From positions 151,751 to 215,750 of the forward strand of contig JAHJHG010000009.1 of NCBI GenBank assembly GCA_018823885.1: 64,000 bases of DNA, written 5' to 3'. The position numbers and the translations under genes are program-made. The notes beneath the pieces are model-generated. The model saw nothing but the letters and a program-made list of their open reading frames with translations. It was not told the DNA's origin and did no database searches. Below are positions 2,963 through 59,649 of this stretch, piece after piece. The DNA comes from Patescibacteria group bacterium. Lineage in GTDB: Bacteria > Patescibacteriota > Microgenomatia > UBA8517. Positions within the stretch are counted from its first letter, which is position 1. Each line of letters opens with the position of its first letter.

Positions 2963-3268
2963 GTGAGTAGGATGATTAAATTTAATTCAACACAAGAATT
3001 TACAAAAACCAATATAAAGAAATTGCCTACCAACAAAGCCATTATTTACAAAATAAAAGACAGCAAAGGCAAAAATATATATACTGGCATAGCTGGAAGA
3101 GGGGAAAGTCAAAATAGATTACTTGCTCACAAGGAATTAAAAAAGGATAAAATTCCAGGAGCGAGTAAATTTCAAATTAAACAGGTTAAAAATAAGGATA
3201 TTGCCAGAAGAAGTGAGAAACAAATAATCAAGAGCGAAAGACCTAAATTTAATAAACAAGATAAATAA
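2963..3268 (+). CDS. Small GIY-YIG-like domain protein
   Basis: AIIYKIKDSKGKNIYTGIAGRGESQNRLLAH matches the GIY...YIG...R pattern. Basic C-terminal tail. Confidence 0.45.
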   Translation: MSRMIKFNSTQEFTKTNIKKLPTNKAIIYKIKDSKGKNIYTGIAGRGESQNRLLAHKELKKDKIPGASKFQIKQVKNKDIARRSEKQIIKSERPKFNKQDK

Positions 3269-3386: not shown

Positions 3387-4072
3387 ATGGGAATAAATAT
3401 GTCAAAGAAATACTGGAAACCCAATACAATAATAAACAGAACCTTAGACGCAACTGGTATAAGGGATTGGAATTTTTTTTCTCAAAAAGCTTTTATAGAG
3501 GAAGAAAAGATGAAATATCTGATGTATTTCAACAAAGAGCACTGGAAACAATTAAGGAATTTGACTTAAAAAAGAATATTGGAAAGTTTTCCTCTTCAAG
3601 TTTTACCAACTTACTTCAAAAAAACGGAGTAAATAACAATATGGATCGACGGATGGTTTGTGAAACGATCCAGTTAGTAAAAGGTGATGCTAATAAAAAT
3701 ATTGTTTCCTACTCGATCAATAAGATAAAAAAGGGAGAGGTTGGTGAAATTTATGAAGAATTGTGCAACATATATGGAATCGCAGATAAAATCGCATGTT
3801 TCTTTTTGAGAGATGTTTCTATTACTTTTAATTTAGATAAAATGATCGACGAAGAAGATTATAAATATTTTCAACCGATTGATACTTGGGTCAATCAAAC
3901 ATCCAGCAAGTTGGGGATCATCGGCCCAGAGTACAATAATGTTCAGGAAATCAAATCCAAAATTATAAACTCATGTCTTAATAACAAAGTATCACCTTTA
4001 CTGTTTAATGCTGGAGCTTGGTATGTAGGAAAACACGCATTTGACATCTTTTTTGAAGAACCATTTAGGTAA
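3387..4072 (+). pseudogene. HhH-GPD-type DNA glycosylase-like protein, reading frame broken at a T8 homopolymer (3473-3480)
   Basis: Two overlapping ORFs, 3387-3569 and 3467-4072 (TTG start), join into one ~229-aa ORF if the T8 run is read as T9. The downstream part carries a helix-hairpin-helix-like IYGIADKIACFFL followed by PIDTWV, resembling the EndoIII-family GxGxKxA...VDTHV signature. Confidence 0.35.
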
Positions 4073-4121: not shown

Positions 4122-4424
4122 ATGGTGTTAATGTTTTATACATATATCATACGCACGACGGGGAACACTTTGTACACAGGTCAAACAAATAACCTTAAGC
4201 GAAGAGTAGAGGAACACACAATCCACGGCAAGCGGGCTTCTAAGTATTTGAAATCATTTTTAGGTTGTAAGCTTGTTTACTATGAAATTTATCCTATCCG
4301 AAGCGAGGCAATGCGCCGAGAGGCTGAATTAAAGAATTGGTCTCATGATGAAAAGGAGGATCTTGTTAAACAGTGTCAATTTCCGCTGACAGAATTTAAT
4401 GTGGAACAAAAAGTTCCAATATAG
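4122..4424 (+). CDS. GIY-YIG nuclease superfamily protein (YhbQ/UPF0213-like)
   Basis: FYTYIIRTTGNTLYTGQTNNLKRRVEEH is a classic GIY-YIG N-terminus. Paralogous to 25716-25973. Confidence 0.7.
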   Translation: MVLMFYTYIIRTTGNTLYTGQTNNLKRRVEEHTIHGKRASKYLKSFLGCKLVYYEIYPIRSEAMRREAELKNWSHDEKEDLVKQCQFPLTEFNVEQKVPI

Positions 4425-4434
4425 TCCCAGATGG

Positions 4435-4544
4435 TCAGCCCAATTAGGCACCCTAGCGACCCAGGTGTCTAGAATAACCCGGAAGTTTTTGTTAAAACGC
4501 CAGTTAAAACCTCAAACATTCGTACCACATCCTCACTGTCCGGA
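4435..4544. repeat. Copy A of a ~108-bp direct repeat family (GGCACCCTAGCGACCCA...AAACATTCGTACCACA...CCGGA)
   Basis: Roughly 80% identical by eye to 20853-20960. Shares both ends with 19300-19408. Same orientation in all copies. Confidence 0.6.
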
Positions 4545-4586
4545 AATTTCTATTAAAAATGGTAAAATTGATCGAAACAATCAATA

Positions 4587-7556
4587 ATGATGGAAAATAC
4601 TGTTAAAAACTATATTCAGTCAATCTCCTCAAAATTCTCTTACGAGGAAACTAGCGAGATGGGGTATCGTACTGATTTTGAAATATTGCTTAAAGAAATT
4701 TTCAAATCAATCAAGGTTACTCGCTTTGATCATGATGCGAGAGCCAGACAGGGCAATAAACCGGATTTTGTTGTAGTTAACAATAGCGTGCCTATTTTGT
4801 ATATAGAAACGAAAGATATTGGAAAGTCTCTAGATAAAGTTGAGAAATCAGAACAAATGACCAGATATTTTGGGTATGCCAATCTTGTTCTCACAGATTA
4901 CACAGAGTTTCGTTTTTACAGAAACGGTATTAATTATGGTGAGCCAATAAAAATTGCGGATTATGATATAAAAGATCGAACAATCACTCCGAACCCGAAA
5001 AATTATGAATACCTAGCAAAAACCCTACTTGATTTTACTAAGTCCCACAAAGAACCAATCCGTTCGGGTAAGCACCTTTCAAGAATTATGGGTGGCAAAG
5101 CTCAGAGAATTCGTGATAACACACGCCACTTTTTCTCCAATGGGTCGAAAAAAGATACAGATCTTGTCAAATTGTTTGAAACCTTTAAAAAACTTCTCTT
5201 ACATGATCTGACACCAGACTCTTTCGCTGACATGTATGCACAGACTCTTGTATATGGTCTTTTTGTCGCGCGCTATCACGATAAAACACTTGGTAATTTT
5301 TCAAGACAAGAAGCTCGTGAGCTCATCCCAAATTCCAATCCTCTTTTGCGTCACTTTTTCGATCATATAGTTGGAGCAGATTTTGATAAACGACTTAAAT
5401 ACATTGTTGATGAGTTGTGTGAGGTATTCTCACATGCCGACGTAGCCAAACTCATGGAGGAATATTTCAAGGAAGATTCCCAAAATGGACAAAAAGGCCC
5501 AGATCCAGTTATCCATTTTTATGAGGATTTTTTAAAGAAGTATGATCCAGATTTAAGAAAAAAGATGGGAGCTTACTACACTCCACAACCTATTGTGCAA
5601 TTTATCGTTTGCTCAATCGACTATTTACTCAAAAAAGAATTCGGACTTTCAACTGGCCTTGCTGATACTTCAAAAACGACAGATAATATTCATCGCGTTC
5701 AGATTCTTGATCCGGCAGTGGGAACAGGAACATTTATCAGTGCAGTTATCAGAACAATTTATAAGAGACTATTAAAAAAAGGGCAAAAGGGACGATGGCC
5801 TGCATATGTCCACAATGACTTGCTTCCACGCCTGCACGGTTTTGAGATAATGATGGCTCCATATACAATAGCCCATTTAAAATTAGGTATTGATTTTAGA
5901 AAGACTGGATTTTGGGATTTCCATCGTCGTTTGGGTATTTATCTTACTAATTCACTAGAGGAAAGTAGTATCCAACAGCAAGATTTATTTGCATTTGGTT
6001 TGGCAGAAAGTATCGCTGAAGAATCAAAAGAGGCATCAGTCATTAAGAACAAAACTCCAATTATGGTTGTAATTGGCAATCCACCTTATAGTGTTAGTTC
6101 ATCAAATGTAAATGCATATACAAAGAAATTAATAGAAGTATATAAAAGAGGCTTAAATTTAAGAAATACACAACCGTTATCTGATGATTATATTAAGTTT
6201 ATAAGATTGGCTGAAGTTTTAATAAATAAAAATAAAAGTGGAATAGTTGCGTATATTTCAAACAGATCTTTCTTGGAGGGTATTATCCATAAATCAATGA
6301 GAGCGTCACTTCTTGGTTCGTTTGATGATATATACATTGTTGACTTAAACGGTGATGCGACAATCAATCAAACAAGAGATAATCCTGATAATGATCAAAA
6401 TGTTTTTGATATAAAACAAGGTGTAGCAATATCAATTTTTGTGAAAAAGGTAAATAGTGTTACAGAGAAAAAATTAAATTATTTTAGTGTTCGTGGCAGT
6501 CGATTATCAAAGTTTGATTTTTTAAGTAGCACAAAATTAAGTGATATTGATTTTTCTGAACTCCAACCAAATTCAGAATTCAATTTTTTTGTTGAAAAAG
6601 ACTTAACTAATGATGAGTACGTAAAATTTATTTCTCTAGACGAAATATTTAATGTCCATTCAAGTGCAATAGCAACATCTGATGATAACAACTTGGTATC
6701 GTTTACAAAAAGAGACGAATATAAAATCCCGTTTTCGTACAGACCCTTTGATCAGAGATATATCAATTATGATTTGAAGAAAGTAAAAGGTAATCGTTAT
6801 AATCGTTTGGTTAAATTTTTAATAAATGAAGAATTTAGTGAACTTTTTGAAAATATAAGTTTGGCTTGCTCAAAAAATATCACAACAGAAAGTTTCTCTA
6901 GTGTTTTAGCTAGTAAATCACTTATTGAAAGGAAGTTTTGTGATTATTCAAGAGGCCCACATGTTTTTCCTCTTTACATATACAATGGCAAGGAATCACG
7001 TATCTCAAATGTGAACAATAATTTTACTGCTAATGTATCTCGAATAGTTGGTGATGTATATCCTGAAGATATTTTTGATTATATTTATGCAGTTTTATAC
7101 TCACCCAGCTACCGTGAGGAATACAGGGAATTTTTGAAAATTGATTTTCCAAGAATTCCATATCCTAAGAATAAAGAAGGTTTTAAAAAACTTGTTTCGC
7201 TCGGAAACGAATTAAGAGCACTTCATTTACTGGAATCGTCGAAGTTGAATCAATTCATTACTACTTATTCTATTGATGGGTCTAATATTGTAGAAGAAAC
7301 AAATTACCAAAATGGGAATGTTCGTATCAATGAAAATCAATATTTTGGGAATGTTCCAGAAATAGCCTGGAATTTTCATATCGGCGGGTATCGACCAGCT
7401 CAAAAATGGCTAAAAGATCGCAAAGGTCGAAAATTAATCAATAAAGACCTTGAACATTATCAGAAAATAATTGTTGTTTTGGTAGAGACGGTAAAGATTA
7501 TGGAAGAGATAGATAAATTTTACAATTTGGTAATAAGTTCCTCAAAAAGCCAATGA
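4587..7556 (+). CDS. Type IIG restriction-modification enzyme (fused PD-(D/E)xK endonuclease, gamma-class N6-adenine methyltransferase and C-terminal specificity domain; MmeI/Eco57I-like)
   Basis: N-terminal PDFVVV...ILYIETKD (PD...ExK). GAYYTPQPIV (Eco57I-family MTase signature). DPAVGTGTF (motif I). NPPY (motif IV). A long C-terminal domain ends in the GGYRPAQKWLKDRKG box typical of this family. Confidence 0.75.
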   Translation: MMENTVKNYIQSISSKFSYEETSEMGYRTDFEILLKEIFKSIKVTRFDHDARARQGNKPDFVVVNNSVPILYIETKDIGKSLDKVEKSEQMTRYFGYANLVLTDYTEFRFYRNGINYGEPIKIADYDIKDRTITPNPKNYEYLAKTLLDFTKSHKEPIRSGKHLSRIMGGKAQRIRDNTRHFFSNGSKKDTDLVKLFETFKKLLLHDLTPDSFADMYAQTLVYGLFVARYHDKTLGNFSRQEARELIPNSNPLLRHFFDHIVGADFDKRLKYIVDELCEVFSHADVAKLMEEYFKEDSQNGQKGPDPVIHFYEDFLKKYDPDLRKKMGAYYTPQPIVQFIVCSIDYLLKKEFGLSTGLADTSKTTDNIHRVQILDPAVGTGTFISAVIRTIYKRLLKKGQKGRWPAYVHNDLLPRLHGFEIMMAPYTIAHLKLGIDFRKTGFWDFHRRLGIYLTNSLEESSIQQQDLFAFGLAESIAEESKEASVIKNKTPIMVVIGNPPYSVSSSNVNAYTKKLIEVYKRGLNLRNTQPLSDDYIKFIRLAEVLINKNKSGIVAYISNRSFLEGIIHKSMRASLLGSFDDIYIVDLNGDATINQTRDNPDNDQNVFDIKQGVAISIFVKKVNSVTEKKLNYFSVRGSRLSKFDFLSSTKLSDIDFSELQPNSEFNFFVEKDLTNDEYVKFISLDEIFNVHSSAIATSDDNNLVSFTKRDEYKIPFSYRPFDQRYINYDLKKVKGNRYNRLVKFLINEEFSELFENISLACSKNITTESFSSVLASKSLIERKFCDYSRGPHVFPLYIYNGKESRISNVNNNFTANVSRIVGDVYPEDIFDYIYAVLYSPSYREEYREFLKIDFPRIPYPKNKEGFKKLVSLGNELRALHLLESSKLNQFITTYSIDGSNIVEETNYQNGNVRINENQYFGNVPEIAWNFHIGGYRPAQKWLKDRKGRKLINKDLEHYQKIIVVLVETVKIMEEIDKFYNLVISSSKSQ

Positions 7557-7844
7557 GGTACCAAGGTTGACTGGAGGCTCTTTTAGCGGAATGGACCAGT
7601 TGTATTTTGCTCACAAAAACCTTCTGTTAAAGAAAGTTAGGCAGCGAGAAAATAGCAGAAATATGGAAATAACGACACAAGCTAAAGATGGCTATGAACA
7701 ACGTATTGGTTGGATAGAATTTAAAAACAAGGTAATGACAAAAGAGAAAATTCTATTGTACAACTGGTTGCTTTAACAAAGAGCTGGAACGATGGGGGAA
7801 GCAGGTGATCATTATTATGAAGGCACTTGGCAGATGGTTTGAAA

Positions 7845-9203
7845 TCATGAAACCTTTTGTTTAAGGTGGGCCAATAAAGCTTTTTTCTTGTTTGGAATTT
7901 TCTTTTCTTCAACTTCTTCAAAAAGTTGTTCTAATATTTCTCCTACTTTTGGTCCAGGTTTTAAGTTTAATTCCTTCATGACATCATTTCCTGATATTTT
8001 TAGATCATGAATGGTGAATGGTTGTTTTTGAACTTCAATTATTCTTTTTTTGAATTCTTCTAATCTCCACGAGGTTTCTCTGGCTCCACCACCCAGTCTG
8101 TCTCCTACTCTTAAATCAATCATGTCTTTAATGTTTTCTTTACCTACATTTTTAATAAATCTTCTTATTGCTTTGTCCGTTTGTTTTTCATCAACAGTGA
8201 ATTGATGCCACTGAACAAGAGTGATTAGCTTTTCTGATTGTTTTTTTGATAATTTCAATCTTTCAGCTATTCTTTTGGCAATCCTGGTACTGACAACCTC
8301 ATGGTTATAGAAAGTAATTGTTCCATTTTCTAGTTTTCTGTATGTTTGCGGCTTGCCAATATCATGAATTAAAGTAGCGAACCTAACGATAGGGTCAGTG
8401 CTTTTACAATGTTTTAGAGAAAGGAAACTATGCGTACCAACGTCATGAACGTGGTGTCTGCCCGGTGATTTTTGTTCTACGCCAAAAGTTTTTTCAAGTT
8501 CAGGAAGAATTTCTTCCAACAATCCAACTTCTCTAAAGATAATCATGCCTTCATATGGATTAGTAGAGGCAAGAATTTTAATTAATTCATCTTTTGCTCT
8601 TTCTTTGGCTATCTTGTTAATGAGTGGGGCATTTGTTTTTATTGCTTCGAGTGTTTCCTTTTCAATTTTAAAATTAAGTTCTGTGGCAATTCTCACTGCC
8701 CTCATCATACGCAGGGCATCTTCCGAGAATCTTTCTGAAGCTTCTCCCACGGCTCTAATGAGTTTCTTTTCTAGGTCTTTTTGACCATCGTAGGGATCAA
8801 TAAGTTCATACTCATCTTTCTTGCCCTTTTTTCTTTTAAGAGCCATGGCATTGATGGTGAAATCACGTCTTTTAAGGTCTTCTTCTAGTGTTTTTCCCCA
8901 AACGACCTTGTCTGGACGACGCTTGTCTGTATAGCCTGATTCGTGCCTAAAAGTGGTTATTTCATACGGATGGGGCGATGATTCATGACTAATACCGACA
9001 GTACCGAAGGTATTGTCATAGAAACCGTCTGGAAAAATCTTAAGAATCTCTTTTGGAGTAGCGTTGGTGGTGAAATCCCAGTCTTCAGCGCTCTTTTTCG
9101 TCAATAAATCACGCACGGCTCCTCCTACAAGATATATTTCAAATTCTGCTTTCTCGAATTTTTTTAGAATTTCTAATACGAATTTTGGTAGCTGGACATC
9201 CAC
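7845..9203 (-). CDS. cca: CCA-adding tRNA nucleotidyltransferase with HD domain
   Basis: LVGGAVRDLL, a DxD nucleotidyltransferase core, RRDFTINAMA and a C-terminal HD domain (HDIGK). The ORF track extends to 9476, but that 90-aa hydrophobic extension overlaps recJ on the other strand. An in-frame GTG at 9203, 9 nt after a TATAAT box, is the more likely start. Confidence 0.7.
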   Translation of the reverse strand: MDVQLPKFVLEILKKFEKAEFEIYLVGGAVRDLLTKKSAEDWDFTTNATPKEILKIFPDGFYDNTFGTVGISHESSPHPYEITTFRHESGYTDKRRPDKVVWGKTLEEDLKRRDFTINAMALKRKKGKKDEYELIDPYDGQKDLEKKLIRAVGEASERFSEDALRMMRAVRIATELNFKIEKETLEAIKTNAPLINKIAKERAKDELIKILASTNPYEGMIIFREVGLLEEILPELEKTFGVEQKSPGRHHVHDVGTHSFLSLKHCKSTDPIVRFATLIHDIGKPQTYRKLENGTITFYNHEVVSTRIAKRIAERLKLSKKQSEKLITLVQWHQFTVDEKQTDKAIRRFIKNVGKENIKDMIDLRVGDRLGGGARETSWRLEEFKKRIIEVQKQPFTIHDLKISGNDVMKELNLKPGPKVGEILEQLFEEVEEKKIPNKKKALLAHLKQKVS

Positions 9204-19231: not shown

Positions 19232-19302
19232 TGCGGGATGGTGTAATGGTAGCACGCTGCTCTCTGGAAGCAGAGATTGGGGTTCGAGTCCCTGTCCCGC
19301 AG
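19232..19302 (+). tRNA. tRNA-Gln (anticodon CUG)
   Basis: Manual cloverleaf: acceptor TGCGGGA/TCCCGCA with U1:A72 (typical of bacterial tRNA-Gln). D-stem GTGT/GCAC. Anticodon stem CTGCT/AGCAG with loop CTCTGGA. T-arm TGGGG-TTCGAGT-CCCTG. Discriminator G. CCA not encoded. Confidence 0.85.
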
Positions 19303-19408
19303 CTAGTTTGGGCACCCTATTGACCCATATGCCTCGAAAAGCCCATGTTTCTCTTCAAAACTATCGATCATACTCCCAAACATTCGTACCACACCCTCAG
19401 CTTCCGGA
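19300..19408. repeat. Copy B of the ~108-bp direct repeat family, immediately 3' of tRNA-Gln
   Basis: TTGGGCACCCTATTGACCCATATG...CCAAACATTCGTACCACACCCTCAGCTTCCGGA. Its ends align with copies A and C. Confidence 0.55.
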
Positions 19409-20806: not shown

Positions 20807-20852
20807 AGTTCTATGGTTTAAATTATAAGGACTAGAGAGGCCTAAGCCCACA

Positions 20853-20960
20853 AGCTCAGCCAAATTGGGCACCCTAGCGACCCATGTGCTAAGAATAACC
20901 CGAAAGTTCTTGCTTAACCTCCGTATTATTTCCAAAACATTCAGTTTACAATGCTGAACC
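20853..20960. repeat. Copy C of the ~108-bp direct repeat family
   Basis: TTGGGCACCCTAGCGACCCATGTGCTAAGAATAACCCGAAAGTTCTTG...AAACATTCAGTTTACA. About 80% identical by eye to copy A. Confidence 0.6.
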
Positions 20961-22832: not shown

Positions 22833-23225
22833 ATGTTTTTAAAAGCATATTTAATCACCCTGCCAGTTTTTTTGGCAATCGACTTGGTTTGGCTCAGTCT
22901 AATCGCCAGGAAATTTTACGCTCAATACCTGGGTTATTTGATGAAGGCAAACGTCAATTTTATAGCAGCCGGTCTATTTTACTTACTGTTTGTGGTTGGC
23001 TTAGTGGTTTTCTCAGTTTTACCGGCTTTGGAGAAGAACTCTTGGACCCAGGCTCTTTTTTTAGGAGCTCTGCTTGGATTTGTATCTTACGCCACCTATG
23101 ATTTGACAAACTTAGCCACTATTAAAGACTGGCCGTTGATAGTCACGATTGTGGATATGCTTTGGGGGACAGTCTTGGGGGCTTCAGTCTCTCTGGTTAG
23201 TTATTTTATTGTCACAAAAATTTAA
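22833..23225 (+). CDS. Small integral membrane protein (DUF2177-like)
   Basis: 130 aa with four hydrophobic helices. Begins 2 nt after the tspO stop. Confidence 0.4.
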   Translation: MFLKAYLITLPVFLAIDLVWLSLIARKFYAQYLGYLMKANVNFIAAGLFYLLFVVGLVVFSVLPALEKNSWTQALFLGALLGFVSYATYDLTNLATIKDWPLIVTIVDMLWGTVLGASVSLVSYFIVTKI

Positions 23226-23306
23226 AAAGTTCCAATATCGCCCCACATTCTCAGCAAAAATTATATTATCTGCTATAATTTCCCCAGATTTTGCTCGGGA
23301 ATAAAG

Positions 23307-25218: not shown

Positions 25219-25710
25219 ATGACAATAAGAGTGCTTTGGCCGACCCGCTCAGCCAATCTTCCCAAAGATGACAACATCTTTGCTATAATTTTCATCATGC
25301 AAAAACTTCTTGCTTCAGACAAGGTATATATTAGTAAATCAGGAATTCTTGATGCCGGTAGGGGAGTTTATGCAAGACGTGATATTAAGAAAGGTGAAAT
25401 GATTGAAAGGTGTCCAATTATTGAAGTTTCCAAAAATGATACATCCAATCTGAAAGAAAGCGTTCTTGTAACTTATTTCTTCTATTTTGGCAAAAACAAG
25501 GAACGGTTAGCGATAGTTTTAGGTTTTGGATCAATATATAACCATTCATACAAACCTAACGCAACTTATAAAATGAAATCTCGAGAAAAGACAATTGATT
25601 TTATTGCCATAGACGATATCAAGAAAGATGATGAGATTACATTTAATTATTCCAATTGCAGCAACCCAAAAGGTAAGGAAAACCCATTGTGGTTTGAAGT
25701 AAATAAATAG
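25219..25710 (+). CDS. SET-domain protein (putative protein-lysine methyltransferase)
   Basis: GRGVYARRDIKKGEMI, then the NHSCxPN-type motif YNHSYKPNA, then the ELxFDY-type motif EITFNY. 163 aa. Confidence 0.7.
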   Translation: MTIRVLWPTRSANLPKDDNIFAIIFIMQKLLASDKVYISKSGILDAGRGVYARRDIKKGEMIERCPIIEVSKNDTSNLKESVLVTYFFYFGKNKERLAIVLGFGSIYNHSYKPNATYKMKSREKTIDFIAIDDIKKDDEITFNYSNCSNPKGKENPLWFEVNK

Positions 25711-25715
25711 TTTGT

Positions 25716-25973
25716 TTGCTAAAATGTATTGTGTTTACTGTATATATCTTAAGAACCGATAAGAACACTCTTTATACGGGGCAAACCAAAGACCTTGTGG
25801 CTCGCCTAGGAAAACATACATTAGGAAAGGGAGCAAAATACGTAAGAGGATTTAAATCTTTTGAGTTGGTTTACACAGAAAAATTTAAAACTCGTTCAGA
25901 AGCCTTAAAGCGAGAGCATGAGTTAAAGAAATTATCAAAACAAGAAAAAGAAAATCTAATAGCTGCCCTATAG
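25716..25973 (+). CDS. GIY-YIG nuclease superfamily protein (YhbQ/UPF0213-like), paralog of 4122-4424
   Basis: VYILRTDKNTLYTGQTKDLVARLGKH and the C-terminal RSEALKREHELK. Begins 5 nt after the SET gene stop. Confidence 0.7.
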   Translation: MLKCIVFTVYILRTDKNTLYTGQTKDLVARLGKHTLGKGAKYVRGFKSFELVYTEKFKTRSEALKREHELKKLSKQEKENLIAAL

Positions 25974-26146
25974 TTTCTTGACAAATGTTTTTAATCTGTT
26001 ACACTGACATCTGTTCCGTTAACTCGGAACCAAAGACTGTTTTTTTAATTTGATTTAAGTCGGTAAGTAAGGGTACCCCAGAAACTACTTTTAACACGTA
26101 TCTTTCCTTCAAACACTTGCATTCCCATTAATATAAGCAGTTTCGT

Positions 26147-27322
26147 TTGAAACTAATGTATAAACAAAGAAATCATTCGCGTTATTCGCGAAGAAGGAAT
26201 TTTGGGCCCAGAAAGGCCAATATTCGTAGCTTTGATCCAAGGACTGTTATTGGGAAAATAACCAGTCCTATTTCTGATGTCTGTGAAATTAAAAACAAAT
26301 TTTCAGACTTTGTTCTTGACGGGCGACTTTCTGGAAATATCGCAGCTCACAGATTTAATGCGCCTACTCCTATCCAAGATCAGGCGATACCTGAAATCTT
26401 ATCCGGTCATGATGTGGTTGGTGTTGCCAACACAGGTACGGGTAAAACAGCTGCTTTTTTAATCCCCCTTATTAATAAAATAGTTCTTAATGGAAGATCT
26501 AGAGTTTTAATCATTACGCCTACACGCGAGTTGGCTGTTCAAATCGAAAAGGAATTACAAGGTTTTTCCAGTGGTATGGGTATATATTCTGCCGTTTGTA
26601 TTGGAGGAGTTTCCATTCATGGGCAAATAAATAAGCTTCGAAGAGGCCCTCATTTTGTGATAGGCACTCCAGGGAGGTTGCTTGATTTAGAAAATCAAAG
26701 GAAGATTAATTTTAATAGCTTTGATTCAATTGTTTTGGACGAAGTAGATAGAATGCTTGATATGGGATTTATCAACGATATGAAAAAAATTATTTTAAAA
26801 CTTCCAAGAAATAGGCAATCACTCTTTTTCTCAGCTACTCTTGATGAGAAAGTAAAGGGCGTAATGAGTCAATTTGTTTCGAATCCGGTCATGATTTCAG
26901 TTAAAGTCGCAGATGCCAGCACAAACGTACGTCAAGATGTCGTTGAATTGAGAGGTAGAAACAAAGCAGACGTTTTATGTGAACTATTAGATACAAAAGA
27001 AGCGTCAAAAACTCTTATATTCATGAGGACTAAAAGAAGTGCGGACAAGCTGCACAGAAGTCTTACAGATGTTGGGTTTCATACAGCGGTTATGCATGGA
27101 AACAAGACTCAAAACCAAAGACAAAGATCTCTTGAGCAATTCCGTCATGGTAGGGTAAGCGCTTTGATTGCGACAGACGTTGCCTCAAGAGGAATAGACG
27201 TCGATGATATTACTCACGTTATCAATTACGATCTTCCGGAAGACTATGATACTTATATTCACAGAATTGGGAGAACAGGTAGAGTAGACAAAAAAGGAAT
27301 CGCTCTAACATTTATAGGCTAA
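26147..27322 (+). CDS. DEAD-box ATP-dependent RNA helicase
   Basis: Q-motif region. Walker A GTGKTAAF. DEVD (motif II). SAT. HRIGRTGR (motif VI). Confidence 0.85.
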   Translation: MKLMYKQRNHSRYSRRRNFGPRKANIRSFDPRTVIGKITSPISDVCEIKNKFSDFVLDGRLSGNIAAHRFNAPTPIQDQAIPEILSGHDVVGVANTGTGKTAAFLIPLINKIVLNGRSRVLIITPTRELAVQIEKELQGFSSGMGIYSAVCIGGVSIHGQINKLRRGPHFVIGTPGRLLDLENQRKINFNSFDSIVLDEVDRMLDMGFINDMKKIILKLPRNRQSLFFSATLDEKVKGVMSQFVSNPVMISVKVADASTNVRQDVVELRGRNKADVLCELLDTKEASKTLIFMRTKRSADKLHRSLTDVGFHTAVMHGNKTQNQRQRSLEQFRHGRVSALIATDVASRGIDVDDITHVINYDLPEDYDTYIHRIGRTGRVDKKGIALTFIG

Positions 27323-57165: not shown

Positions 57166-57239
57166 TTTTTTCAACTTGCATGTAGAACGATTCTAAAGAA
57201 GTCGAAAGAGCAGGTAAAAAGTATAGCTAACCCTCAAAA

Positions 57240-57269
57240 TTGACAACAAATTCTATTATGGGATATAAT
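57240..57269 (+). promoter_or_regulatory. Consensus sigma70 promoter of paralog 1 (TTGACA, 18-nt spacer, TATAAT)
   Basis: -35 at 57240-57245 and -10 at 57264-57269. An almost identical promoter sits upstream of paralog 2. Confidence 0.55.
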
Positions 57270-57346
57270 GTCGTGTTCATTAACAACTTGCGGAAAAGGT
57301 TGTTGTCAATAATCCGAGTAGTCACACACAAGACAAGGAGGAAACC

Positions 57347-58369
57347 ATGTCTGATAGAGGACCCAACTGGGTTGATTATGCAAATTTGGGAGCCAATATT
57401 GTTCAAGCAGGTCAGTTGGCGGGAGTGCGCGACAGGCTTAGTGAGTTGGCCCGCATAGAGACAAATCGAGAGAGACGGATTCAACTCGAAAACGAACTAA
57501 GGCAGTTTATCTTCGAGATAGAAGAGGGGATTGAACGTCTCACGGGTTATCTCCAAGAGGCACCTTTGGGTGTTTATATTACGGCGCACATACTAGAAAA
57601 TATTTTTGATGAAGTGGGCGTCGAGCCGGCTACTTTCCAGCAGTTTACGGATAAGGACCGAGTTAAGCAGGTTCGAGCAGCAAATTCCCTGATAACGGAA
57701 AATGCAGCAAATGAGTTAAGTGAAAAAGAAGTTGAAAAAGTGCGTTTTCACTTAAAACTCTCTGATCGTTTTTCTGATCTCGACTTGTTAATTTCTCATC
57801 TTAAGGCTTCCCAAAAACTACCAGATATGAAAAAGAAGTTGGAGAAACTTTCCGATGAAAAAAACAGAGGTGTGAAATATTGGGTATTGCTTATAATAGG
57901 GGGATTTCTTGTTCCGCTATTTGCACTTGATTATTTAGGTCCCAATGTCCTGTGTTGGATTGGTTTGATAGAAGTAATAGGGTTTGCTGGTCTACTCTAC
58001 TCGTCGTCGTCGGAAGAGTATAGAAAAGTAAAAAACGAGGGGGAAGAACTTCGAAAAAAGATTCTTTCATCAGAGAAACTTCATGTACTCTATGAGGTTT
58101 TTGGCGAAGGCTTAACGATCTCCCAATACGAAGAGATAGAGAAAGAGACGAGGGATTACATAGGCCAAGCAACAGAGAAGGATAAGGATGGGAATTCTCT
58201 CCCTAAGTCTTTGTTCGAATTAACATTTCCACCACAGATATTTGAGCCGGAAAAAAGCTTGGACAAAGTAGTACATACCCGTGAAAATTGGTTATGTCCC
58301 AAATGTGGTGGTGGTAACCCCGGCAATCGAACAACTTGTTTGGGTTGTAACACCGAGAGAAGATGGTGA
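57347..58369 (+). CDS. Hypothetical membrane protein, paralog 1 of a tandem pair (N-terminal conserved domain, central two-TM hairpin, C-terminal Cys4 zinc ribbon)
   Basis: N-terminus MSDRGPNWVDYANLGANIVQAGQL. TM region WVLLIIGGFLVPLF...IGLIEVIGFAGLLY. C-terminus CPKCGGG...CLGCN. 340 aa. Confidence 0.55.
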   Translation: MSDRGPNWVDYANLGANIVQAGQLAGVRDRLSELARIETNRERRIQLENELRQFIFEIEEGIERLTGYLQEAPLGVYITAHILENIFDEVGVEPATFQQFTDKDRVKQVRAANSLITENAANELSEKEVEKVRFHLKLSDRFSDLDLLISHLKASQKLPDMKKKLEKLSDEKNRGVKYWVLLIIGGFLVPLFALDYLGPNVLCWIGLIEVIGFAGLLYSSSSEEYRKVKNEGEELRKKILSSEKLHVLYEVFGEGLTISQYEEIEKETRDYIGQATEKDKDGNSLPKSLFELTFPPQIFEPEKSLDKVVHTRENWLCPKCGGGNPGNRTTCLGCNTERRW

Positions 58370-58540: not shown

Positions 58541-58647
58541 TGGATTACTTTTATGAACCACTAGCGCTCAATAATTATTTCTTCAGCTTATAGATAAACA
58601 AACATAGAGAGATCTTAAAGATGAGCAAGAAGGGTAAAAGCTCTAAA

Positions 58648-58677
58648 TTGACAACAAATTCTGTTATAGGATATAAT
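58648..58677 (+). promoter_or_regulatory. Consensus sigma70 promoter of paralog 2 (TTGACA, 18-nt spacer, TATAAT)
   Basis: -35 at 58648-58653 and -10 at 58672-58677. The TTGACAACAAATTCT.TTAT.GGATATAAT block is shared with the paralog 1 promoter. Confidence 0.55.
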
Positions 58678-58752
58678 ACAACGTTCTTTAAAACTTGCGG
58701 AAAAGATTCGATCCGAATACGCGGAAAGCCCATATTAAAAAGGAGAAAGCCA

Positions 58753-59649
58753 ATGTCTAACAGAGGATCCGACTGGGTCGGTTACGCAAATTTGGGAGCC
58801 AATATTGTCCAGGCAGGTCAATTGTCTAGAGTGCAACGAAATCTTGAAGGCTTAGCCTTGATAGAAATCGCCAGGGAGGAACGCGTCCGACTTGAAAATG
58901 AATTAAGGCAATATATCTTCGAAACAGAAGAAGGGCTCAAGCGCCTGAGGAAATATATTGACAAAGCTCCCTTAGGAGTTTTTACTGTTACTTCGCAATT
59001 AGATAGTTTCTTCAGGGAGATACGACTTGAACCCGAAGCTTTCCAGCAATTTGTCGATAAAGACAGGGTACAAAGTTTGTTTAGATCAGTTGAGGAGATC
59101 TTTGAAGAAACATCAAAGTTTTTGGACCAGAATGTAATGGAAGAGGTAAGAAGCAAGGTTGAACTTGTTCAGAAACTGCTTGGTTATCTGAAGATTTTAC
59201 CTAAACTGACCGAAACTACCAACGAAGACAAGAAACTGGAGAAAAAAAGAGCTTTTGTCATCACCATGTTGTTGGGAGTAGCGATATTTACATTGATCGC
59301 TTTTGGTTTTGATACTCCTGGTAATTGTATCTGTGGTGGGTCGGGCGTGGTGTATTTAGCAATCTTGATGTTCGCACTCGCCAAAGGTCCATATGGAGAT
59401 AAGAAACGGGGAGTGAGAATTAAACAGCTTGAGGAACTTCAGAAACAAGTGAGCTTGCTAGCAAAAGAAATTAATAGTATTGCTGGTAAAGAATTGACGG
59501 AGAAGAAGGAATACGAGCAAGTTCTTGATGAGGCGCAGACGCGTTTGAAAATGTTGACACAAGAAGATAAGGATGGAGAACAGTTCGTTGAATCTTTGTC
59601 TACGATTCTTTTTCAACCGCAGTTCTCGAAAACAGCGCAAGACGAGTAG
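58753..59649 (+). CDS. Hypothetical membrane protein, paralog 2 (lacks the C-terminal zinc ribbon)
   Basis: MSNRGSDWVGYANLGANIVQAGQL aligns with paralog 1. ATG at 58753 is preceded by AAGGAG. The ORF track's start at 58621 would read through the promoter. Confidence 0.55.
   Translation: MSNRGSDWVGYANLGANIVQAGQLSRVQRNLEGLALIEIAREERVRLENELRQYIFETEEGLKRLRKYIDKAPLGVFTVTSQLDSFFREIRLEPEAFQQFVDKDRVQSLFRSVEEIFEETSKFLDQNVMEEVRSKVELVQKLLGYLKILPKLTETTNEDKKLEKKRAFVITMLLGVAIFTLIAFGFDTPGNCICGGSGVVYLAILMFALAKGPYGDKKRGVRIKQLEELQKQVSLLAKEINSIAGKELTEKKEYEQVLDEAQTRLKMLTQEDKDGEQFVESLSTILFQPQFSKTAQDE

Follow-up and report, generated by a model that had tools for sequence, protein, structure and literature searches.

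Two small genes for stand-alone GIY-YIG nucleases, here named GIY1 and GIY2, each lie next to a methyltransferase gene within one 64-kb stretch of DNA from a Microgenomates-group genome (Candidate Phyla Radiation (CPR)/Patescibacteria). GIY1 precedes a restriction-modification (RM) gene and GIY2 follows a gene for a SET-domain lysine methyltransferase; the whole 64-kb stretch is referred to as the window. Are the nucleases functional partners of the methyltransferases, or do the adjacencies have another origin? The initial annotation suggested a modification-dependent link between nuclease and methylation, or else homing-like mobility of the cassettes. Our comparative analysis argues, with moderate confidence, for a different explanation, namely that the methyltransferase neighbors of both genes reflect a shared geography at the flanks of tRNA-Gln genes. 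The features of the locus are collected in Table 1.

The neighborhoods of GIY homologues were surveyed in Microgenomates by scanning one genome per species. An alignment of 28 GIY sequences had no usable conserved stretch, and a closer set served as the query. The scan yielded 32 Microgenomates-type loci with homologues that were 51–84% identical; together with 80 metagenomic SET loci, the comparison set comprised about 110 related loci (prefix L) in total, many of the metagenomic contigs being short. Methyltransferases among the neighbors were called by Pfam, and regular-expression screens for S-adenosylmethionine (SAM) binding motifs, which missed known methyltransferases such as RsmB, were dropped. 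SAM methyltransferases accounted for two of the 58 immediate neighbors of the 32 homologues, one being the SET gene of L011 and the other an RsmB/F gene. The remaining immediate neighbors included Dus (3), DEAD-box helicases (4), hydrolases, a diacylglycerol kinase, transporters and others. A SET gene was located upstream of GIY in 1 of the 31 loci having upstream sequence, and in 8 of the 32 loci a DEAD-box helicase gene was no more than three genes away from GIY. Thus, the recurrent coupling to methyltransferases proposed in the initial annotation fails as a general rule in the Microgenomates clade; the part of it that stands is the pairing with SET, which is considered below.

A different neighbor was much in evidence. 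tRNA genes were called by ARAGORN on all fetched loci (~707 kb), and 33 of the 67 tRNAs were tRNA-Gln. Upstream of GIY, a tRNA-Gln gene was present in 20 of the 32 species-level loci, on the same strand in 19 of them and at distances from 6 nucleotides (nt) to 5.3 kb, with the anticodon CTG in 12 loci and TTG in 8. No tRNA-Gln gene was found within 6 kb downstream of GIY in any of the 32 loci. In the window, tRNA-Gln(CTG) is located 6.4 kb upstream of GIY2. The contact can be very close: the ATG follows 3 nt after tRNA-Gln for GIY in L014 (5439–5530) and for SET in L131 (3927–4010), where the order is tRNA-Gln-SET-DEAD without GIY, and GIY starts 4 nt after tRNA-Gly within a tRNA array in L016 (2801–2900). 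Likewise, L122 and L068 have SET directly after tRNA-Gln. A spacer of 3–4 nt leaves no room for a separate promoter. The tRNA genes before the open reading frames (ORFs) of L014, L016 and L131 are CCA-less, and a CCA-less pre-tRNA is cleaved after the discriminator base, so that cleavage in loci of this type would release a near-leaderless mRNA.

These observations are consistent with the following scenario. The UPF0213 family, to which GIY1 and GIY2 belong, would in Microgenomates be part of the DNA immediately downstream of tRNA-Gln, with the ancestral local order tRNA-Gln, (SET), GIY-YIG, DEAD-box RNA helicase. Where the first ORF starts 3–4 nt after the tRNA, it would be co-transcribed with the tRNA and freed by tRNA 3' processing as an essentially leaderless message. 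The 3' end of tRNA-Gln may in addition serve as a local insertion site for foreign cassettes, integration being the presumed mechanism of gain. SET, as another resident of the tRNA-Gln flank, would have become the neighbor of GIY2 in a sub-clade, and some 6 kb of cassettes with tRNA-3'-like relics at their borders would have been wedged between the tRNA-Gln of the window and SET. The RM gene would have arrived with a copy of the left-end trailer of the island, at a tRNA-Gln-like relic that follows GIY1 in its orthologues. Both methyltransferase adjacencies would then exist because of the geography of the tRNA-Gln flank.

Table 1. Features of the window, with coordinates counted from its first nucleotide.
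Feature	Coordinates	Strand	Description	Basis or remark
GIY1	4131–4424	+	UPF0213-type minimal GIY-YIG, 97 aa from ATG 4131	Pfam, family HMM, orthologue alignments
GIY2	25731–25973	+	UPF0213-type minimal GIY-YIG, 80 aa, GTG start	Pfam, family HMM, homologue alignment
Doubtful third GIY-YIG-like ORF	2963–3268	+		Sub-threshold Pfam match only
Type IIG RM enzyme	4587–7556	+	989 aa: PD...ExK-like N-terminus, GNPPY N6-adenine methyltransferase, Type ISP-like specificity domain	
SET lysine methyltransferase, minimal	25297–25710	+	137 aa	Pfam, homologues, structure-sequence matches
DEAD-box (CshA-like) RNA helicase	25978–27322	+	Promoter, leader and gene (gene 26147–27322)	Conserved downstream neighbor of GIY2
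tRNA-Gln(CTG) with trailer (repeat copy B)	19232–19408	+	tRNA at 19232–19303	Neighborhood anchor
GIY1 3' flank (head of repeat copy A)	4408–4444	+	tRNA-Gln T-arm/acceptor-like, AAAAAGTTCCAATATAGTCCCAGATGGTCAGCC	Matches head D and the head pattern
Trailer of repeat copy A	4445–4544	+		Same ~100-nt sequence follows tRNA-Gln at 19304–19408
Repeat copy C	20847–20942	+	tRNA-3'-like head and trailer, between cassettes	
Head-only relic D	23224–23260	+		
Head-like relic E and SET upstream flank	25238–25296	+	Relic GGCCGACCCGCTCAGCCAA at 25238–25259	

The insertions can be followed by a repeat family that consists of a head resembling the 3' end of tRNA-Gln and a conserved trailer of ~100 nt (GGGCACCCTAGCGACCCA...CAAACATTCGTACCACAyCCTCA). 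The trailer follows an intact tRNA-Gln not only in the window, but also in L013 (2158–2296), L032 and L037, and it occurs without a tRNA in L010 (3147–3284, 1668–1751) and L046 (2559–2689). Trailer and head have been copied without the tRNA body to the borders of gene cassettes, and relic E together with the SET flank can be aligned to the intact 3' end of tRNA-Gln and the SET flank of L122. From this anatomy we infer that the segment from 19.3 to 25.2 kb represents stacked insertions at the 3' end of tRNA-Gln, placed before an ancestral tRNA-Gln-SET-GIY-DEAD block. The repeat and its trailer gave no Rfam match, even at E≤1, and no significant fold on the + strand as a structured RNA. As described in the initial annotation, GIY1 lies upstream of the N6-adenine methyltransferase/RM gene with repeat copy A (4426–4544) occupying the spacer; that both adjacencies are situated at tRNA-Gln 3'-end sites or relics had been missed.

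The RM gene itself is predicted to encode a complete single-chain Type IIG enzyme with its own nuclease region. The protein matched the PADLOC model REase_MTase_IIG from residue 5 (E=1e-237) and the Pfam families N6_Mtase, Eco57I and Type_ISP_C (2e-62), and its translation contains a PDF...ETK motif at the N-terminus and GNPPY further on. The GIY1 orthologues are found in other surroundings: those at 84% and 75% identity are located downstream of a RimK-type ATP-grasp gene, and the one at 69% identity is flanked by NUDIX and GNAT genes. No RM gene was present near these three orthologues, and no RM homologue was found across the 32 GIY loci. Homology between the orthologues and the window covers the coding sequence and ~25–35 nt of the 3' flank and ends a few bases further on, where the trailer starts. 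The flank itself, i.e. head A, is retained in the orthologues L050, L042 and L046, and in the window the trailer begins directly after it. Because homology stops at the trailer and the orthologues lack the RM gene, the adjacency of GIY1 and RM is a junction made in the window species. Thus, the pairing is species-specific and incidental, and the coupling between the two genes that had been proposed was not borne out by any orthologue examined. The copy of the trailer suggests that the same island family carried the RM gene as cargo to a secondary site.

In the closest relative, L011, the order SET-GIY-DEAD-cupin-TruB is the same as in the window, and the identities between the two are 81% for GIY2, 81% for DEAD, 85% for cupin, 73% for TruB and 70% for SET. 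GIY2 has thus diverged in step with its neighbors, as expected from vertical inheritance. The GIY contexts are otherwise highly variable, with a gap of at most 16 nt to an unrelated upstream gene in about 13 of 30 cases. Additional GIY copies were located within 6 kb in 5 of the 32 loci, and no near-identical copies were seen.

Both window proteins are readily recognized as members of UPF0213. They matched the Pfam GIY-YIG family PF01541 with E=1.7e-15 and 57.5 bits for GIY1 and E=1.9e-19 and 70.1 bits for GIY2, compared to a cut-off of 22.6 bits, and aligned to each other with 48% identity over 80 amino acids (aa; E=2e-24), which confirmed that the genes are paralogous. A family hidden Markov model (HMM) run over the window found exactly these two copies. 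Homologue alignments moved the start of GIY1 from 4122 to ATG 4131 and that of GIY2 from 25716 to GTG 25731. The NCBI record of GIY1 gives 97 aa (P0086), and an exact-sequence look-up for GIY2 found the 80-aa form with GTG start on record and no match to the 85-aa form with TTG start. GIY1 exceeds every orthologue by five C-terminal codons because the stop codon TAA of the orthologues reads CAA in the window.

A profile built from the two window proteins and 26 homologues matched the UPF0213 structures 1zg2 (BH0048; 5e-27) and 1ywl (EF2693; 9e-23), in agreement with the YhbQ type assigned initially, and the remaining matches were all to SLX1 and weak (1.6e-4 and 1.8e-3). Y15, G17, R25, H29 and E62 are invariant across the 28 sequences, including both window copies, and Y5 is nearly so. 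Each protein has a single Pfam domain and the chain ends 5–20 residues past the core, with no second domain or DNA-binding module detected by Pfam or by homologue alignment. No GIY protein matched a PADLOC defense model or a PHROGs family. Homing families gave no match either, the only signal being to the NCBIfam group I intron endonuclease at E=0.0075. GIY1 and GIY2 are thus best described, from these profiles, as anciently diverged UPF0213 paralogues (YhbQ/YazA, bacterial Slx1-like) made up of the catalytic core only. The third GIY-YIG-like gene of the initial annotation did give a weak Pfam match (E=8.7e-4), but at 20.0 bits it fell under the cut-off; it was not recovered by the family HMM and had an hhalign probability of 4.7%. 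It is possibly a divergent GIY-YIG gene.

The SET gene was analyzed in the same manner. Homologue alignments placed its start at ATG 25297 instead of 25219, and the protein matched Pfam PF00856 with 63.3 bits (E=3e-17). The translation contains GSIYNHS and ITFNY, of which the NHS and FNY positions are invariant in 22 homologues, and the best structural-sequence matches were 5h6z (S. pombe Set7; 2e-14) and 1n3j (PBCV-1 vSET; 1e-13). The 137-aa protein is highly conserved in CPR, with 703 matches, the best 120 of which were 71–100% identical. Since SET enzymes of this kind methylate protein lysines and not DNA, a methylation-sensing DNA nuclease does not follow from the pairing of SET with GIY.

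With the corrected GTG start at 25731, the gap between SET and GIY2 is 20 nt and not 5 nt as first annotated, although the adjacency to a SET-domain gene holds. SET and GIY2 each have their own TGnTAWAAT box 5–7 nt before the start codon. The GIY2 box TGCTAAAAT at 25717–25725 ends 5 nt before the start, and GIY of L062, which has no SET upstream of it, is preceded by the same box. The SET upstream flank contains a hairpin at 25263–25282 and the box TGCTATAAT at 25281–25289. With TGgTAAAAT at 4560–4568 for the RM gene, boxes of this type are present 5–17 nt before the start of SET, GIY2, the GIY1 orthologues and the RM gene. SET and GIY2 need not form the operon proposed in the initial annotation, judging from these boxes. 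Of all promoters in the region, the most sigma-70-like one, a canonical TTGACA-16-TACACT, belongs to the DEAD-box helicase gene. It is followed by a leader of ~140 nt within 25978–26146 that is highly conserved between species and displays a hairpin and then a T-run (GTTCCGTTAACTCGGAAC...TTTTTTT). The leader may have a regulatory role; no Rfam match was obtained, even at E≤1, and no significant fold on the + strand.

The explanation by shared geography has to be weighed against a genuine two-protein module of SET and GIY-YIG, acting as a complex or in a common pathway, with a nucleoprotein or RNA as the substrate and the DEAD-box helicase as a possible participant, the adjacency being maintained by selection. 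We regard such a module as a serious, though less likely, rival. The data that speak for it also weigh against geography: the enrichment of GIY beside SET is greater than we can ascribe to the common anchor. In the metagenome scan, 53 of the 80 SET loci had room on both sides, and GIY, the commonest neighbor family of SET, adjoined it in 12 of these, compared to about 2–4% expected. There were 13 loci with a UPF0213 gene on the same strand within 150 nt downstream of SET and 4 with one upstream. GIY made up 16 of 139 immediate but 2 of 107 second neighbors (Fisher p=0.005, a value that does not factor in the shared tRNA-Gln anchor). On the SET tree the adjacency occupied no fewer than six separate positions, and GIY from several clades took part in it; these were neighbor-joining trees of 80–135 aa that were poorly resolved. 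Both gene orders of the pair occur. In L062 (880–1700), where GIY is 90% identical to GIY2, the order is GIY-SET-DEAD as compared to SET-GIY-DEAD in the window (25660–26060), and relics of the SET 3' end (ATAAATAG) and the GIY 3' end (GCCCTATAG) ahead of the GIY promoter box and the DEAD promoter, respectively, indicate a local swap by tandem duplication followed by deletions, through which the pair was kept together. L070 (3743–4441) and the protein P0253 are in-frame fusions of an N-terminal UPF0213 GIY-YIG and a C-terminal minimal SET domain, and UPF0213 has been paired before with the COG4123 and TrmH methyltransferase folds (PMC1564403). Set against this, no GIY gene adjoins SET in 77% of the SET loci with room, SET is rare among the GIY loci, each gene has its own promoter-like box, and a local swap by its nature leaves the genes adjacent. 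The two fusions are ~75% identical over the N-terminal ~100 residues, as estimated by eye and not computed, and no other fusion was found among the best 150 representatives of 50% clusters with P0253 as the query, where the matches in two stretches were all tandem SET-SET proteins; they were therefore counted as one lineage. Moreover, both genes are independently tied to tRNA-Gln, which can give adjacency without function. Of the two methyltransferase pairings, only that of SET and GIY makes a direct functional tie plausible on these sequence comparisons.

Shared geography also has weak points of its own. The chance expectations are rough, as they assume genomes of ~1 Mb with about two tRNA-Gln genes, and the linkage of tRNA-Gln and GIY could be inherited synteny without function. 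Relics D and E, both short and weak, were missed by nhmmer. No integrase or recombinase was identified among the called genes of the 19–26 kb region, so that the case for integration comes from the anatomy of the repeats. For the putative RM island, no right end was identified: 7557–7845 contained no head-like repeat. A further rival takes the UPF0213 genes to be selfish or mobile, homing into tRNA 3' flanks and dragging RM and SET along as cargo, or takes the nuclease to make tRNA-Gln flanks recombinogenic. Its attraction is that GIY sits after tRNA-Gln(CTG) or tRNA-Gln(TTG) and once after tRNA-Gly in an array, in variable contexts with tight junctions, with extra copies nearby in some loci, a frameshifted copy in L041, and tRNA-3'-like heads on cassette borders with no integrase in the vicinity. 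An analogy is offered by the GIY-YIG endonuclease SegB of phage T4, which is located in, and cuts, a tRNA gene region. However, proteins of 80–97 aa without a DNA-binding domain, paralogues that are 48% identical with no near-identical copies, the co-divergence of GIY2 with its neighbors and the lack of PHROGs, PADLOC or homing-family matches make mobility improbable, and duplicated tRNA 3' ends mark the att sites of recombinases and not homing repair. The reading put first in the initial annotation, a nuclease partner of the adjacent methyltransferase in a restriction-like or modification-dependent system, could appeal to two adjacencies in one window and to a hypothesis put forward in 2006 for COG4123-GIY-YIG operons (PMC1564403). 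This reading is largely refuted by the comparative data and essentially excluded: the RM enzyme is a self-contained Type IIG protein, the adjacency is not kept in any GIY1 orthologue, SET methylates lysines in proteins, none of the GIY proteins matches a defense model, and the large sequence-recognition insertions that GIY-YIG restriction enzymes bear (PMC1564403) are absent from the window proteins. With adjacency explained by shared geography, it follows that the GIY nucleases serve neither as restriction partners of the methyltransferases nor as homing endonucleases.

What, then, might the nucleases do? They probably act, together with partner proteins, on structured RNA/tRNA or on DNA. Of an RNA/tRNA-directed role and an Slx1-like role in DNA repair, the former is somewhat more likely because of the company the genes keep, i.e. 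tRNA-Gln, Dus, DEAD-box helicase, RsmB, cold-shock protein and TruB, in addition to the published fusions to TrmH and to COG4123, which we take to be the tRNA m6A37 methylase TrmN6. The ATL/MGMT-like genes beside SET and GIY may point to DNA repair. A more far-reaching and speculative proposal, which we consider doubtful, is that UPF0213 represents a tRNA-Gln-linked, co-transcribed RNA/tRNA module with leaderless mRNA that includes SET and the DEAD-box helicase, SET being the third methyltransferase fold recruited after COG4123 and TrmH; in a variant of it, the nuclease would turn the 3' flank of tRNA-Gln into a hot spot that captures cassettes without integrase, such as RM.

The survey places UPF0213 in three contexts in a phylum of minimal genomes, with tRNA-Gln upstream, the DEAD-box helicase downstream and SET as an occasionally fused partner. 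The focus for its function shifts toward RNA/tRNA substrates and the partnership with SET, and away from restriction. That two pairs of nuclease and methyltransferase genes in one genome can stem from a shared insertion site and not from a shared function calls for caution in the discovery of defense systems from gene neighborhoods.

Several other features were noted in the comparison set. In L024, L038 and L040 (about 5033–6250), a Dus gene overlaps the GIY-YIG start by 1 nt and is followed by a DEAD-box helicase gene; Dus-GIY-DEAD is a second conserved arrangement, seen in Woesebacteria-type genomes. The UPF0213 gene of L041 (1880–2541) is split across two overlapping frames, probably because it is a pseudogene with a frameshift or because of a sequencing error. 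Among the other recurrent neighbors of SET (L125, L064, L106, L011 and others) are a TehB-like methyltransferase, RimK-type ATP-grasp proteins and, in 6 loci and on either side, cold-shock-domain proteins; also recurrent are proteins of 100 aa whose only domain is the DNA-binding domain of MGMT/ATL, encoded directly upstream of SET in L011, L064 and L106. Proteins of ~250–320 aa with two tandem minimal SET domains were also observed (P0298, P0305, P0306, P0313, P0314 and more).

At 2190–2823, a DUF433 gene and an overlapping 140-aa ORF, whose match to DUF5615 is weak, form a pair that looks like a toxin-antitoxin type. It lies at the left edge of a small island that also contains the doubtful GIY-like ORF, a 201-aa gene, GIY1 and the RM gene. 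The 201-aa ORF (u201; 3467–4072) was considered as an HhH-GPD glycosylase from its likeness by eye and rejected, since it had no Pfam, NCBIfam or PADLOC match. Two direct repeats 1.4 kb apart, at 57233–57428 and 58641–58834, are 82–84% identical and span a promoter-like region as well as an ORF start, which suggests tandemly duplicated paralogous genes.

The closest known relatives of the window proteins are UPF0213/COG2827 proteins such as YhbQ of E. coli and YazA of B. subtilis, which likewise have 80–100 aa and a single GIY-YIG (URI) domain in which Tyr, Tyr-x-Gly, Arg, His and Glu are conserved. In contrast to YhbQ and YazA, the window-type genes are tied to tRNA-Gln, the DEAD-box helicase and, in a sub-clade, SET, and they are multi-copy in small CPR genomes. 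This widespread bacterial family has solved structures and has been an orphan for 20 years; we know of no function assigned to it and, to our knowledge, the tie to methyltransferases made in 2006 by guilt by association was never resolved. The region from tRNA-Gln to SET resembles tRNA-targeted integrative islands in that an intact tRNA is followed by partial 3'-end copies between lineage-specific gene blocks, but differs from them by the absence of an integrase and by a ~100-nt trailer that was copied with the head, including to the site of copy A 15 kb away. The RM enzyme has the same layout as Type IIG/IIL enzymes of the MmeI type, with a nuclease/methyltransferase profile, GNPPY and a Type ISP-like C-terminus; compared to these there is nothing unusual about it, a separate nuclease is not needed, and the link to GIY1 is positional. 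The SET protein shares with PBCV-1 vSET and S. pombe Set7 a core of ~120–170 aa without pre- and post-SET regions, but it belongs to a CPR host without histones, and its gene often abuts tRNA-Gln and GIY-YIG genes.

Homing endonucleases (I-TevI, Seg) have the GIY-YIG motif, a location beside tRNA genes and variable contexts in common with the window genes, but carry NUMOD or helix-turn-helix DNA-binding modules and reach at least 200 aa. The catalytic core of eukaryotic Slx1 is homologous to the window proteins, whereas its RING/PHD finger and its partner Slx4 have no counterpart here. Slx1 without its partner is almost inactive (PMC7017083), and this need for a partner is a model for the core-only GIY proteins. 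The closest precedent in context is the description of Slx1-like GIY-YIG domains fused to or paired with the COG4123 N-methyltransferase in Lactobacillales, fused to TrmH (SPOUT) and inserted in HsdR (Dunin-Horkawicz et al. 2006, PMC1564403). Those authors proposed either an RM-like role or one in RNA metabolism for the GIY-YIG/methyltransferase pairs, and warned that the GIY-YIG domain's mobility can yield meaningless fusions (PMC1564403). The same nuclease family thus recurs beside or fused to a methyltransferase, but the partner in the window is a SET-fold lysine methyltransferase, a third unrelated fold, and the RM neighbor is a complete Type IIG enzyme and no lone methyltransferase. We found no report in the literature that ties YhbQ/UPF0213 to SET, tRNA-Gln or Patescibacteria/CPR. 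Thus, while the association with methyltransferases has been known since 2006, the SET pairing, the tRNA-Gln anchoring and the CPR context of UPF0213 are apparently new: GIY1 and GIY2 themselves are ordinary members of a known family, and it is their context that is novel.

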